Shown: one piece after another, positions 6,160 through 46,672 of the stretch
Position numbering within the stretch: position 1 is the stretch's first letter
How the letters are laid out: every line of letters begins with the position of its first letter
Source of the DNA: Amoebophrya sp. A120
Lineage: Eukaryota; Protista; Dinoflagellata
Assembly (NCBI GenBank): GCA_905178155.1
Contig: CAJINV010000001.1
Coordinates: 14,942,142-15,006,141 of the forward strand
Direction: 5' to 3'
DNA length: 64,000 bases
Translations under genes and position numbers: made by a program
The notes under the pieces: model-generated
What the model saw: the letters and a program-made list of their open reading frames with translations, nothing else
The model's database searches: none
Told to the model about the DNA's origin: nothing

Positions 6160-8027
6160 TCACATCACACTTACGGAGACGCGGAATCGTTTCGGGTCCG
6201 TATCCCGGCGGTGCTCGACCGGAATCGGGTGTTCACAAGTTTCTTCCGGGTTTCCTAGATCCCTTGCCACTTGTTCCAGCGCGTGCCGAAACTTGCGTCC
6301 GGCCCAGAAAGACATGTCGCGGGGGATGGAGACGCGATCCCGCACGTAGCGCAAGGCCCGTGCGCTGTTCGGAGGAAGACGATCAATTTGGACCGCTTCA
6401 GGATCTCGCTCCCTGATCAGGTCCACGATCTGTGATTTTTGAAGTTGAGGTCTCTTCCTAAAACATTTGCATTTCGTTCTTGAACCAGATTCTAGCACAT
6501 CAGCTTGTCGGACCGTCATTCAAAGTCATCAGAGGGAAGGTTTATGTGTTTTGGTCATCAGAGAAACATCAGAGAACTTTGAAGACCAAAAACAACTATT
6601 TTCATCAGAGGAGGGCAGTGCGGAAACCTAGTTTACACTGCTGAGAGTGTCATCGACATTTGCCAGCTCTTTCAGAGGGAAGGTTTGTATGTTTTGGTCA
6701 TCAGAAGTCAGTGAACTTTGAAGACCAGAAACAATTTGTCTCATCCTTTCAAGCGCTGGCGTATAATTTGTACTGAGATCAGGAAAAACGACACTTTTGA
6801 TGTGTCAGAACCCATGCGCAATTTCTTTGTGTTAGTCATCAAAGTTGATCAGCGAACTTCGAAGACTTGTAACAAAAGGGACTCATCATGCTACAGTTCG
6901 TGAATTTAAACTTGGGACAATAAAAACGGAAGACCAATCACAACTCTTTGTACCTGTTGGCACGGTTCCCGCGCTGCGTGCTCTTCTACCAGCCTGGACA
7001 AGACGGCCCGCATGGCAAGATCAAACGCTTCCGACTTTCCATAAGGATTCGCACCAGCTACCTTTTCTCGGTGCCGCAGGACGCGGTACAGAATTTCCAG
7101 TCGCACGTCAGCAGGCTCGGGGAAGCAGTCCGACCTCACCTCAACGCCCTCCGGGATAGCGTCCGCGTCGCTCGCGGCACCATTCACCGGGTGGATTTTC
7201 GCATTTGCGTTCGGATGACAACCCCCTAATTGCGGCGGCAGATCGTGGACGTGCGTGTGGAAATCCGATTTCGTTCCGCGGTACACCTCTCGCGTCTCCA
7301 TCGCAGAGCACCACTTGTCCAAAATCGGATGCTCTTTCCGCAGCTGAAAGCCCTTGTAGTAATACAGGCTCGCGCACATCCGCTCCAAAAATGGTGCGAT
7401 CACACAGTCCGCGACGGTGAAGCTATCGCCTGCGAAGTAGGGACCGTTGCTCTTTGCCATGTGCGCTTCGACCTTTCCACAAACACCTTGAAAGTTCTGC
7501 CTCGCTTCCCGATCCGGGGCGTACGGATTACACAGCCAGTCGCACCAGGCGCGAAACAGCATACGCTCGAGCTTCCGACAGGCGATAATTGCCGGACTAG
7601 TGAGGCTCGCATTATTCAGCGCCCCGAATTCCTCTTCCAGTTCCTGTAGCACGTCATCCGAGTCAGTGACAAGATGCGTGATCTTCTTCGCGTCAGAAAC
7701 GTCGACAAACGCGAGGGCCGGAAGCATCCCAGAAGGAACGATTTTTTTATACCACGGCTCTTTCGCACCGTAGCAGAACATGGTAACTTTTCGCACTTCG
7801 TAGGGCACTCGCTTCTCCTCGAGCCACAGCCACACCTTTTGGCAGTAGGGACACCAGGCGTGGTTGTCGCGAAACAGCACCACCCGTGGCTGCTTCTGCC
7901 CGAACAAGCGCGCCGTCGCGTGGGCATTGGTAGTCCCGTTCACGCCATCTGGTACCTGGTACGCGCTCGCGACAATTCGCGCCAGCGAGTTCCAGCTGCG
8001 GACCAGCTGCGAGGAAGATCCAGACAT
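6160..8027 (-). CDS. Glutathione S-transferase family protein (CPYC type), 2 exons
   Basis: Motifs RDNHAWCPYCQKVWLWLEEK, VPSGMLPAL, TDSDDVL and GPYFAGDSFTVAD. GT-AG intron 6430-6953 joins ...PCQQ|IVDLIRE... in frame to the C-terminal exon (ALRYVRDRVSIPRDMS...RRDTDP). Confidence 0.9.
6529..6608 (-). ncRNA. Intronic box C/D snoRNA candidate, copy 1
   Basis: Minus strand: C box cTGATGA, guide TCTTCAAAGTTC-T, D' CTGA, C' TGATGA, guide AAACCTTCCC-T, D box CTGA; 80 nt. Confidence 0.7.
6672..6747 (-). ncRNA. Intronic box C/D snoRNA candidate, copy 2
   Basis: C box AGGATGA, guide TCTTCAAAGTTC-A, D' CTGA, C' TGATGA, guide AAACCTTCCC-T, D CTGA. Flanks form a 9/10-bp terminal stem (GCCAGCGCTT / AAGAGCTGGC). 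Confidence 0.75.
6805..6889 (-). ncRNA. Intronic box C/D snoRNA candidate, copy 3 (different D guide)
   Basis: Perfect C box ATGATGA, guide TCTTCGAAGTTC-G, D' CTGA, C' TGATGA, guide ATTGCGCATGGGT-T, D CTGA. Confidence 0.7.
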
Positions 8028-9782: not shown

Positions 9783-10570
9783 TTAGAACTTGAGCTCGTG
9801 TGCCATCTGTCCGCTGGAGAGAGCGAACTTGGACTTCATGTACTTCTTCATGGTGGCGTCCAACTTGGCGACGATCTTCGCGTCGACAGCAGCCTGGTCG
9901 GCCTTCTTGGCGGCGGACAACTCGGACTTCTTGCCCTTGTCCAGGAACGCGGCGGCACCTGTGATGTGAAAAAGCGAGAAAATTGCGTTTAGTTTTCAGC
10001 TGCACTTATGATATGCAGCATTACCGACGCTCGATCAATTTTCAAAATTCCAAGAAAAGCGGAACCAAAATCAATCAAAAAAATCTTACCCTTCTTGCCG
10101 GACTTGTCGTCACGCTTGAAGTAAGCGTCATCGAACTTCTTGGTGTCAATGCCGGAGACATCGACCTTGGTAGAGGTGGCGATCACATACCGAGCGTTCA
10201 TGCGACGGAGCGGAATTCCGTTGACCTTGAAAGGTCCGGTGACCAACAACAAACCTGAGATTTTGGATTTAGAAAATTTAGATTTAGAAACAAAAACGGC
10301 ACTATGTCATGCACCAATACCACATCGCTCATGCGTGTCTGCTGCCTCTGCCATTTCAGTGTCTACAAAAACCAAACAACAAGTACCGCTCTTCTCGAGC
10401 TGCTTCAGCACGACGACGCGGGAGCCGCGGAACTGCCCCGTGAGGGCAATGGCGATGGTGCCCGGAGTCAGAGACTTGCGGAGCTTCTGCGGCTTGTTCT
10501 TGGCGGCCTTACGCACGCTCTTGGCCTTGCTGACCACCTGGTTCAGCTTGATCTTGTTCACACGCACCAT
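9783..10570 (-). CDS. RPL6: 60S ribosomal protein L6 (eL6), 3 exons
   Basis: [65 protein letters not shown]...MAHELKF*; GT-AG introns 10255-10386 and 9959-10089. Confidence 0.97.
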
Positions 10571-10744
10571 CTTTTGTACAATTAAGGATACTGAGTGAGG
10601 ATAGAGCCTAAATACCCCCGGTCCCTGTAAGAATAATGTCGAAAATCGTAGCAATATAAGGCAGCAATCTTCGTTAGTACGCAGTCTTCTCGATGTGATT
10701 CTAGCCCAAATTAAAGTTTAGGACTTCCCTATGGATTTCCGTTC

Positions 10745-11433: not shown

Positions 11434-12868
11434 TCACGCCTTCGCAACAACTCCTTCCGGCTCTGCGTTCCCATTCCCCGTAGCGTACTTTTTGTCCTGA
11501 AACTTCCCCTGGTCGATCAGAATCTGGGCGGAGATTTTCGACACGATCTCCCCGACTGTCATATTTTTCCCGAAGAAGTCGACAAATTTTCCGTTCCGGT
11601 CCATCAGATACTGGATGATGCTGTGATCGACCAGGTAATCCTCTCCGTCTGCCCTTATCCCCTCGTTGTAGTACACTCTAAAGGCACGCGTGACCTTTTT
11701 AACCTGCTCCGGGGAGCCGGTTAAGCCCTGCAGGCGTTTGTGGAACTCCGAGCAGTAGGTGTCGACCTGGAGTGGAAACGACCTCTGCACATGATCCCCC
11801 ATAAATTAATCGTGCTCAACATCCTTGGCGCATAAGTATCCACTCTGTTTCTTTCTGTTTCGAAAAAGAACTAAAAGACCAGAAAGTTGTGCACACAGCA
11901 ACTATCAAAAAAAACCTGTGCGACAGTGTCCCTTCCGGGGTCCACTGAAATGAAGATCGGTTCCACGAGCTCCGCGCCAAACATTTTATCCAGCTTTTCT
12001 ATCACCATTCCTTGCTTTTCCATTTCCTCTGGGCAGATGTCCGGGCAGAAAGTGAATCCGAAGTATATCAGCTGGTATTTGCCACGAAAATCCGCGTCTG
12101 TCACCTGTTGTGGAGGCGAGGAAAGTAGTGACATAAGAATGATGTCGGTAAGGGTTACACGACTTTTGACACGAAGAGAGCTGTTAGCCCCAGCCCGTGG
12201 TGGTCCTGAAACATCTTACACTCCGCAGTGCGAACGAGTACCAGCTTCCCCTGCCTATTGTACAACGTCCAAGGTCCGCCGAGTTTCGGCGTCCCGATAG
12301 ATTCCTGCTCGACAATGGCCGCCCGCTGCCGCTTGGCCATGTTTTTGCTCAAGTAGTCCAAGAACCACCACATTCCGAACCCGAAAAACAGGGTGAAGGC
12401 AGCACCGTGGTACGTGAAATACGCCGGGCCGACGAGGCGGTTGCGGTTCTCGCGATGCGTGTGCCCCTTTGGCGTAATGGAATCCGCGCCGAGCCCGGGG
12501 GCGACGTTCTCCGTGTTCAGGTAGCGCGGCCTCGTCATCCCAATAGAAAGAAGCCGCTGCCTACTGCTTGCACGATAGGTTTGGATCGCACGGTTCCACG
12601 ACCTGGCGGACAGAAGAATTTCCGGTCGTAGGGACGATACATGGTAGGCGGGATAGCTGCGACAGCGTAGCGCCAGTGATGCCAGTGGGCGTTTTTGGTA
12701 CACTGGCTTTAACGATGTCGAACTGGAACTGGCGCCGCTTCCAATGAGGAGTTTCTGTGCCTGTGCATGCCGCGTCGCAGCATACAAACATGCAGTAGAC
12801 CAGGAAGCATCGGCGCCACAAGAAGAACCACGCGCCGAGCGCAGAGCAGTAGTACAAACGCCCGACAT
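11434..12868 (-). CDS. SCO1: Cytochrome c oxidase copper chaperone SCO1/SenC, 3 exons
   Basis: Long presequence-like N-terminus, TM helix, LGGPWTL, YFGFTFCPDICP (CxxxC), FISVDP and YLVDHS motifs; GT-AG introns 12105-12241 and 11767-11915. Confidence 0.95.
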
Positions 12869-13459
12869 ACTTTGGTTAGACCAAACAAACGACCAGCTGC
12901 GGCTGCTTTACTAGTTGTAGCTCCTCCGTGCGAAAACTCTGTAGTACATCACCTCTCAAAGTAGGACAATCTGAAATAGCTGTCAGTGCGTTTTGTGCCC
13001 TCTCTAAGACTCCGACTCAACAGGCAAAAAAAGTGTCAAACGAGACTAAGACCACAACGATGCTGCAAACTGCTATTTACAATGATGTCGCCGCGTCTAC
13101 AAAGACACAAACGGCCAAGCGTGTGCGCTTCAATACCCGGGGGCGATTTGCTTCCGCCTTCCGTTCGGTTGATTGTGCGCGAGAATGATGAAGCGATAGC
13201 GAATGAGCATATTGACATTAACAAGCAGACATGGTGGACATATACAAGTCTCAAGTGAAGTCCTGAATTCTCGAACTGTACTAAATATGAGGTAACTTCG
13301 CGACATGAAAACAAAAAAAGATGTTGTTGTTTTGTTGCAGCCGAAATCGCAAGAGATCCACCCAAGCGGAAGCACGATACCAATCTTTGTTTGCCTTTAG
13401 CTATTAGAACTAGTGTAGAGGGTGCTAACTACAAACTTGTTGAGTCGCTATTGGCGTTT

Positions 13460-44566: not shown

Positions 44567-46672
44567 TTACGACGTCGTTTTCGCGACTCCGAAGGTACTT
44601 GACTCCAACACGTTCGGCGCGAACGCCTGCCCCGACGCCACTGTGCGGCGCAGTAGTCTTGATAGCGTGTTCAGCTTACTCATTTCGCCGAGCCTCCGCT
44701 CCCGCGCCCAGTTGTTGCTAGTCCGGGCCACTTGCGCAGCCTTTTCAATTTCCGCCTCGTAAAAGGCCATCATGTTTTCCTCCTTCTTGACGTCTTCCAT
44801 TTTGTGCGTGAAAATCCTCTGTGGGCCGAACTTCCAGGGCTGCAGAAACGTTTTTCGGACCTTGTAGCGGTCCCCGAGGATATCTTTGGCTTCGGCCAGT
44901 TGGGTTTTGGACAGCAGCTGCAGGTGCTTCGACGGCTGGTATCCGTGTCCGTGTGGGTCGTCCATGGCCAGGAAGGGCTTTACCGCCCCGCGCATGAACT
45001 TCGCGGTTTTGTTTAGGTCCTTCACCTCCGGAATCTTCTGGTTCTGCAGCCGGTACGTTGTACTGCTATCCTTCGAAAGGAGGACGGCGGTCTGACTCTG
45101 CGGCACCTGTTGAGAGGGGAAGGAGAGAAATAGTAGATGTAGAAGATGGGGCCAAGCTTACAATACACACGAAAAGGCGCGGCGCGCGACCCTGCTACAA
45201 GGTGGCGCAAAGGATGAGGGCGGCGGGCGGCAGCGGACGCGGACGCTCGCTGCCTCCCCCGCGGCGTTTTGGAAATAAAAACGCAGCGGAGGAGGAATCG
45301 AACCCCTGGGCGTCACCGCCCCCCGCGGGTTGAAGCCGCGTCCGAGCACCAGCCCGGCTCACCACTGCCCTGAGCGGATATACAACCTAAGGAAAAGCCT
45401 TCACCCGGGTAGCCAGAATAGCTACTGCTAAAAACGGCATTCGGGCAAAAAAAGCGCACCATATCTTTTTTTGAGGGTATTTATTCGTAAAAAAGAAAAA
45501 AAAACCTACAAGTAGATGTACCTTCTCCCCGCCAATGACGCCTACCGTCTCGTTCGTTTCAAAATGGCCATAGGGGTTCATGGCCACTTGCCTTTCCGGG
45601 TGCGTCCGCTCCGCTAGGTTTATTGGCCCGCCGATCTTATCCTTCGTATCAAGTGTAAAAATGTCTGGGTCTGGAAGGTGTGATGCGCATTTCAGAACAC
45701 AGAAAAATCTCTCATGCATAGGCAGCAAAAGTTGCCCATTTTCTGTCACCAAAGTCAGGGATTTGTCATGCAGATTCGGCATTGCGAACGCTTCTCGAAA
45801 CCTGTGATGCTAGAGCTTCCATGCCAGACCTTCTGTGTCATGCAAAAGCAGCATGATTCTTCCAGACCCAGACATTTTTACATTTGATACTTCGCCGTCT
45901 GCTTCCATTTCCGCCCTGAGGTGCGGTTCGCTTCCTGCTGCGAGACAAAGCTGTCGGTGGGAAAGCCGTGGACGTCGAACGGGAGATCCAGCCCCGGGGT
46001 CGCGCTGGAGGAAGCGGAAGATCCCAGCACCAGGCTCGACGCGCTGCCGCCAGAGGGGGACGGCGTCTGGCGCTTCGTGGGGGTCTCAATTTGCGAGGAT
46101 GCGGTAGGGGAAACGATCGGGGAGGGCGCAGTAGTCGCGGTTTTAGCGGACGTAGGGGAGGGGGCGGCACCTGAGAAAATGTTGGAAAGTAAAAATTAAG
46201 AGCGACTTTTCAACTCATGGGATCATGATCAGCAAAACTCACAAACTATTTTTTCGGAAAAAAGTAAGTACATTCATCCTTGCTGGGTATAGGATGGCAG
46301 TACAAGACAGAAGTGATCAAGAAGTTGGAGTTTTACTACACGCTAATCAATACCTTTTGCTTGGTCCTTGCTGTCGTCCTCGTCCTCGGCTTTGGGCTCG
46401 ACTTTCTTCCCCTTTTTTTCCCAAATATCGTCCGCCCGGGTTAGCACTGCAAACCTCTCGGCCCGCTGTTGCAGGAAGGCTTCCACGTCCCGCTGTCCGC
46501 GTTTCTTAAACTGGTTGGTCTGCTCTTTTAGCCATCGGTCGCTACGCTGGCCGTACATGGAACGGTACTTGCCGCACCGGAATTCCCAGTTCTTGAACTG
46601 CTTTCCAGCCAACATTTGGCCTTCGCGCAGCTGGACCTCCGGCCCGGACTCGACATGTTGTCCGCGACCCAT
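44567..46672 (-). CDS. Hypothetical protein, at least 4 exons; host of tRNA-Sec and an introner
   Basis: ATG at 46672 (MGRGQHV). GT-AG intron 46171-46353, 248-nt non-canonical intron around 45643-45890 and GT-AG intron 45107-45521 give one continuous frame to the stop at 44567. Confidence 0.8.
45277..45281 (-). terminator. Pol III oligo-T terminator of tRNA-Sec
   Basis: TTTTT immediately after the discriminator base on the minus strand. Confidence 0.7.
45282..45368 (-). tRNA. tRNA-Sec: tRNA-Sec (selenocysteine, anticodon UCA)
   Basis: 87-nt 9/4 cloverleaf: acceptor GCAGTGGTG/CTCCGCTGC, 6-bp D stem CCGGGC-TGGT-GCTCGG, anticodon arm CGCGG-CT TCA AC-CCGCG, long variable arm GGGCG-GTGA-CGCCC, 4-bp T stem GGGG-TTCGATT-CCTC, discriminator G. 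Confidence 0.96.
45647..45889. mobile_element. Introner/MITE, TIR family A
   Basis: 243 bp; 31-bp TIR TATCAA(A/G)TGTAAAAATGTCTGGGTCTGGAAG with 1 mismatch; 5-bp duplication cttcg at 45642-45646 and 45890-45894. Removal restores QTAK|DKIGG. Confidence 0.93.

Follow-up and report, generated by a model that had tools for sequence, protein, structure and literature searches.

The window, i.e., the whole stretch of 64,000 nt analysed here, carries on its minus strand a two-exon GST gene with three box C/D snoRNA-like units in its intron (Table 1). The joined exon translations (358 and 89 aa) are identical, junction included, to a 447-aa Amoebophrya sp. A120 record (P0003), and Pfam finds GST N and GST C domains in the protein. 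The intron has a GC content of 40% and is spliced: a 524-nt skip is present in the contigs of two runs, X1 and X2 (RNA by automated guess), with contig depths of 777-898 in the exons versus 8.4 in the intron for X1, and 110 versus 3.6 for X2. The joint was found in these two of the four runs examined; the other two barely cover the GST gene, with part of exon 1 only in the metatranscriptome X5 and 2 reads on the gene in the raw-read run X10. A preliminary description of this DNA had spoken of an unusually long 524-nt intron. The length is correct, but the adjective overstates what is only a mild excess, since A120 introns average 335 nt, with a median of 247 nt and GT-AG borders in 30% (Table 1 of PMC7789003).

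Most named homologues of the host GST family come from cyanobacteria. A quick tree built from 27 of the 120 homologues groups the host protein with other eukaryotes, apart from the 16 named cyanobacteria, so that the gene is not a recent transfer. A plastid-derived origin of the gene in this plastid-lacking parasite is possible. Elsewhere in the window, a selenocysteine tRNA gene lies at 45283-45368 on the minus strand (Rfam RF01852, 67.1 bits; ARAGORN anticodon TCA).

Table 1. Coordinates in the window of the GST gene, the snoRNA-like units and associated elements
Feature	Position	Strand	Details
GST gene exon 1	6954..8027	minus	358 aa; GST_N_2/GST_C_5 family
Intron with snoRNA-like cluster	6430..6953	minus	524 nt, GT-AG, spliced
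GST gene exon 2	6160..6429	minus	89 aa + stop
Probable decayed fourth copy	6929..6949	minus	18/21 nt equal to 5' half of copy 1
Copy 3 (5'-most)	6805..6889	minus	85 nt
Copy 3 boxes	C 6883-6889, D' 6849-6852, C' 6836-6841, D 6805-6808	minus	
Copy 3 guides	D' guide 6854-6866; orphan D guide 6809-6835	minus	
Copy 2	6672..6747	minus	76 nt
Copy 2 boxes	variant C 6741-6747, D' 6708-6711, C' 6698-6703, D 6672-6675	minus	
Copy 2 guides	D' guide 6713-6726; D guide 6677-6686	minus	
Copy 2 plus closing stem	6662..6760	minus	arms 6751-6760 and 6662-6671
Spacer hairpin, copies 2-1	6616..6642	minus	fold z = 0.25, not above shuffles
Copy 1 (3'-most)	6529..6608	minus	80 nt
Copy 1 boxes	variant C 6602-6608, D' 6569-6572, C' 6555-6560, D 6529-6532	minus	
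Copy 1 guides	D' guide 6574-6587; D guide 6534-6543	minus	

Boxes, similarity and folds of the three units

A strict C/D'/C'/D pattern has three matches in 128 kb (both strands of the window), all in sense orientation within the GST intron; 60 Markov shuffles gave a mean of 0.017 matches and a maximum of 1. Looser box patterns occur six times elsewhere in the window, compared with a null of 2.6 +/- 1.7. The strict pattern is absent from the introns of two sets of minus-strand ORF pieces, at 9989-10717 and 11434-12907, which bear a tentative resemblance to an SCO1-type copper chaperone and ribosomal protein L6 (second and first set, respectively). The preliminary description had reported three related units of 76-85 nt, about 140 nt apart, each with sense boxes C, D', C' and D, and this is what we find: the unit starts are 142 and 139 nt apart, and the units have the terminal boxes and the size (approximately 60-100 nt) of box C/D snoRNAs. 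None of the three copies departs from the consensus in box D' (CUGA), C' (UGAUGA) or D (CUGA). Box C reads AUGAUGA in copy 3 but has one mismatch to RUGAUGA in copy 2 (AGGAUGA) and in copy 1 (CUGAUGA). The GST intron has the arrangement of an intronic cluster, with several sense units in one spliced intron.

Identity amounts to 64 of 80 columns between copies 1 and 2, 53 of 86 between copies 1 and 3, and 56 of 86 between copies 2 and 3 (62-80%), and is concentrated on the boxes and guides. Within the 12-nt core of the D' guide, the sole change in copy 3 still pairs, as G-U, and the base adjoining box D' differs among the copies (U/A/G), in line with the variation noted earlier. Searching the window by nhmmer with the three units gave no additional copy at E < 1.2. 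The closing stem previously described for copy 2 is present (9 of 10 pairs; fold z = -4.42) but is missing from copies 1 and 3, whose fold z values are -0.49 and -1.59, respectively. In the protein-free fold of all copies, an internal stem joins the D' guide with C' and would hide four guide bases; its comparative support is 1 compensatory pair of 14, from three sequences only. The hairpin between copies 2 and 1 may serve as a processing signal. An extra snoRNA in the same spacer was rejected, as its 8 bp to rRNA are reached by approximately 30 of the 417 CUGA boxes in the window by chance.

The comparison with Rfam proposed in the preliminary description did not yield a family at its gathering score in the GST intron. 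There are eight sub-threshold matches, seven of them to C/D-box families, all on the sense strand. Since A120 is rich in introner elements (PMC7789003), the units could in principle be devoid of RNA function and represent either an introner-type element or a tandem repeat of low complexity, and CUGAUGA does recur in the intron and 4 letters are repeated at the exon-intron borders. Taking a terminal inverted repeat of 8-20 nt plus a short direct repeat as the mark of an Amoebophrya introner element, the best match between the intron ends is 7 nt and offset, and 83 of 1,000 shuffles pair as well. Conservation of the units is, moreover, concentrated on boxes and guides, and a 14-bp match to rRNA (below) is reached at none of the remaining boxes among the 417, making an origin as repeat or introner extremely improbable. 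The CUGAUGA repeats were also considered as a hammerhead and rejected, with no Rfam match and no fitting core by eye.

Predicted targets in domain III of LSU rRNA

In box C/D snoRNPs, methylation falls on the target base that pairs with the fifth nucleotide before box D or D', and intronic C/D snoRNAs are processed from the excised intron along an established pathway. We searched metagenomes for the complement of the D' guide, a gap of 5-7 nt and the complement of the D guide. In every one of the 42 loci obtained, the gap is 6 nt and the flanks are of LSU type; RF02543 was found in all nine loci tested. The D' guides of copies 1 and 2 each form 14 Watson-Crick pairs with LSU helix 47 of these relatives, and that of copy 3 forms 13 pairs including one G-U. 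All three exceed 10 bp to eukaryotic or related rRNA with a Watson-Crick pair at position 5, and, of all 417 CUGA boxes of the window, none but the D' boxes of copies 1 and 2 reaches 14 Watson-Crick pairs. Because the loci were chosen by their match to the guides, their domain III scores are partly circular. Independent support comes from the Rfam eukaryotic LSU consensus, read from its alignment with a retrieved LSU fragment, in which model positions ~1477-1492 are complementary to the D' guide irrespective of locus selection, and from the methylation map of plants.

The base opposite the fifth nucleotide before box D' is C1482 of the model in all three copies. We equate it with Arabidopsis C1479, because C1450, A1462 and G1463 (offsets 0, +12 and +13) are spaced like At Cm1447, Am1459 and Gm1460; At Cm1518 (= human Cm2422), human Am2401 and human Um2415 also fall on the right letters. 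By offset, model position 1482 corresponds to yeast C1469 and human C2383. Cm1479 of Arabidopsis 25S rRNA was mapped by RiboMethSeq and has an assigned fibrillarin-bound guide (PMC8583080), and the corresponding Cm1480 in helix 47 is listed for tomato and tobacco, with none for human, yeast or Ostreococcus (PMC11542601). By complementarity, the helix 47 C that equals plant Cm1479 is the best-pairing and likely target of the D' guide.

The preliminary description had placed the targets in the LSU 5' domain. This domain does hold a similar 10-mer, often the second-best site for the D' guide, and the look-alike chosen there lies approximately 1,200 nt upstream of the helix 47 site, which pairs better. 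With a score of 1 per Watson-Crick pair, 0.5 per G-U and -1.5 per mismatch, the D' guide of copy 1 scores 7-10 in the 5' domain of the 32 of 42 loci that reach it, compared with 14-14.5 in domain III, and 10 straight Watson-Crick pairs occur in the 5' domain of only one of the 32. For the D guide, the site first proposed scores 2.5-6.5 and the next look-alike in the 5' domain 2-8, versus 10 in domain III. Pairing would shrink to about 10 nt if the last four bases of the guide were hidden by the internal stem, which would favour the 5' domain; the C in domain III, however, is a mapped methylation site in plants. We regard targets in the 5' domain as very unlikely for these genes. What survives is the idea of two near-adjacent LSU sites for copies 1 and 2, placed in domain III instead of the 5' domain.

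The D guide of copies 1 and 2 forms 10 Watson-Crick pairs at a site 20 nt 3' of the D' target C; the D guide of copy 3 does not reach 10 bp. The guide of copies 1 and 2 matches the variant GGGGAAGGUUU and not the Rfam consensus GGaGAAgGGUU, which lies directly 3' of the D' site and is three changes away from the guide's ideal partner. An exact match to a MALV-II probe is present in six of the seven loci that cover the SSU region, the exception being L158. This suggests that the D guide suits a variant of the rRNA that occurs largely within the group to which the parasite belongs. Immediately past the fixed search pattern, at a position that was not selected, 39 of 42 loci have a C, again complementary to the guide of copies 1 and 2. 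On its own the 10-bp duplex is weak, as at least 10 bp are also reached by chance at 3 (locus L139) or 1 (locus L162) of the other 413 boxes. The base opposite the fifth nucleotide is A at model position 1502 (At A1499, human A2403). An equivalent of A1499 is absent from the plant methylation table of PMC11542601, human 2403 did not turn up in a text search of one human map, and a text search of PMC11014333 gave no match to the site numbers. Human SNORD68 directs Am2401 of 28S rRNA (PMC5597630), two nucleotides from the D target of copies 1 and 2 and on a different nucleotide; the Am2401 position is G in the 42 retrieved loci.

From the conserved boxes, the sense orientation and the complementarity to rRNA, we consider it highly probable that the spliced GST intron contains three tandem-duplicated box C/D snoRNA-like genes, predicted to guide 2'-O-methylation in LSU domain III. 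The excised intron would be debranched, cleaved within the 57- and 63-nt spacers and trimmed, and Snu13, Nop56/58 and fibrillarin would assemble on the trimmed RNA. Methylation would then fall on the base opposite the fifth nucleotide before D or D', i.e., the helix 47 C equivalent to Cm1479 for the D' guides of all three copies and the A1499 equivalent, 20 nt downstream, for the D guides of copies 1 and 2. Together with the 6-nt linker between them, the two duplexes occupy 31 nt of rRNA, and their order would let a single snoRNP bind the two sites simultaneously. A preprint reports that snoRNP proteins are expressed in Amoebophrya spores (10.1101/2025.04.10.648098).

Several observations were made on the retrieved contigs themselves. 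In L133 (1211-6560) and L139 (1-7765), the rDNA is linked to 5S and to an snRNA block with U1, U2, U4 and U5, which in L133 additionally includes U3. L139 fits the MALV-II probe yet carries U1. In A25 and A120, U1 was not detected (PMC7789003). In L148 and L160 the rDNA is repeated in tandem, and a 5S gene sits in the short spacer that separates the LSU from the following SSU. Viral contigs contain 120 stretches complementary to 15 nt of the guide, none of which was judged to be rRNA by its flanks, and 11 matches to a two-part pattern, two of them with an LSU fragment. In L124 (4115-4503) and L126, which are filed as viral, a piece of eukaryotic LSU ends abruptly just 3' of the predicted target site; the break may mark an intron insertion. 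A pattern for snoRNA homologues had no match in viral contigs, and no orthologous cluster from another species was obtained.

Divergence among the copies

The D guide of copy 3 has diverged, as the preliminary description had stated. Against nine long rDNA loci its best scores are 7-9, none conserved between loci, with no clean match of at least 10 bp; a site 8 nt past the target of copies 1 and 2 offers only 8 bp with two G-U and was rejected. This guide is a drifted orphan. With eukaryotic U6 it pairs at 11 of 12 positions of an arm of the internal stem-loop, raising the tentative and rather doubtful prospect that copy 3 has been retargeted to the C62 equivalent of U6 and is a dual rRNA/snRNA candidate. 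The perfect complement of the guide would have A-U in place of the C-G pair that closes the U6 stem. Against canonical U6, the one mismatch adjoins the target base, and the hand score of approximately 9 equals the best chance score in the rDNA loci (9.0). In the relatives represented by L133 and L139, the U4 5' ends point to a canonical U6 arm; U6 itself was not found in the 42 rDNA loci, and the U6 motif had no match in viral contigs.

Close to the 5' border of the intron lies a stretch that is probably a decayed fourth copy, judging from its likeness to copy 1. It holds half a guide only and no box C; its score is reached by 7 of 2,000 shuffles and 1 of 446 window blocks, for a match that was found post hoc. 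The splice donor lies where box C of this remnant would be expected (within 6929-6956), hinting that the 5' border of the intron arose inside a snoRNA copy.

Such a remnant is also what one would expect if only one or two of the copies were functional and the remainder were decaying duplicates, i.e., snoRNA pseudogenes. The variant box C of copies 1 and 2, the missing closing stem in copies 1 and 3 and the orphan D guide of copy 3 point in the same direction. On the other hand, every copy has flawless D', C' and D boxes, the only change in the guide core of copy 3 pairs as G-U, and it is the unpaired base that varies. A mixture of working and decaying copies seems unlikely, if less so than the alternatives for the rRNA target and the nature of the units discussed above.

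Known systems and significance

The closest counterpart by target is Arabidopsis At1gCDbox23.1 (AtsnoTAIRsnoRNA6; PMC8583080), which like the A120 units has a predicted target in helix 47. There, however, the target is on the 3' (D) guide and a second target is lacking, whereas the A120 units use the D' guide and, in copies 1 and 2, a second guide directed 20 nt downstream. In Rfam snoR160 (RF00203), the 3' guide plus box D equal 20 nt of the D' guide plus box D' of copy 1. The match scores 22.8 bits against a gathering score of 42 (E = 0.67), the guide sits at D instead of D' and the rest is unrelated. Arabidopsis AtsnoR160 (PMC7464842 and PMC2875012) is an unrelated H/ACA RNA that shares its name with RF00203.

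The cluster in a non-ribosomal host gene, called notable in the preliminary description, is real but less notable than it appeared, given precedents in PMC2656528 and PMC2875012. In the alveolate Plasmodium falciparum, the paralogous C/D snoRNAs PFS15 and PFS16 share one intron and a common target (PMC2656528); they differ from the A120 units in comprising two copies, in having ribosomal protein S27a as host and in targeting the equivalent of yeast Cm2337. Arabidopsis snoR79a-c and snoR90a/b (PMC2875012) are intronic paralogues that also occupy non-ribosomal hosts, but they are H/ACA RNAs. Ostreococcus has two intronic snoRNA clusters (PMC7671301), and Chlamydomonas reportedly has intronic clusters too. 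These plant and algal clusters resemble what is predicted for A120 in their polycistronic processing and differ in lineage and host gene.

The RNA class and the gene arrangement are already known; what is new is their occurrence in this lineage. A search of mainly openly accessible literature found no description of a snoRNA in Amoebophrya, the nearest joint mention being the title of a reference, and term searches of the text and supplement text of the A120 genome paper (PMC7789003) found no mention of snoRNAs. One could go further and see in the cluster a dual guide clamping a 31-nt stretch of domain III, combining the plant-only Cm1479 with an unreported A1499 equivalent, with copy 3 retargeted to a compensatorily changed U6; these would be the first modification guides of Syndiniales, in a parasite with no detectable U1. 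This full combination seems improbable to us.

The analysis yields two testable predictions of rRNA methylation for an abundant group of marine parasites. It also suggests that Cm1479 in helix 47, listed only for plants, is shared by plants and alveolates, by ancient origin or by convergence. The cluster shows the birth and death of snoRNAs within a single intron, where three copies are intact, one guide has drifted and a further stretch is probably a remnant. Finally, the cluster may explain why a canonical intron has been retained in a genome in which two thirds of the introns are non-canonical.
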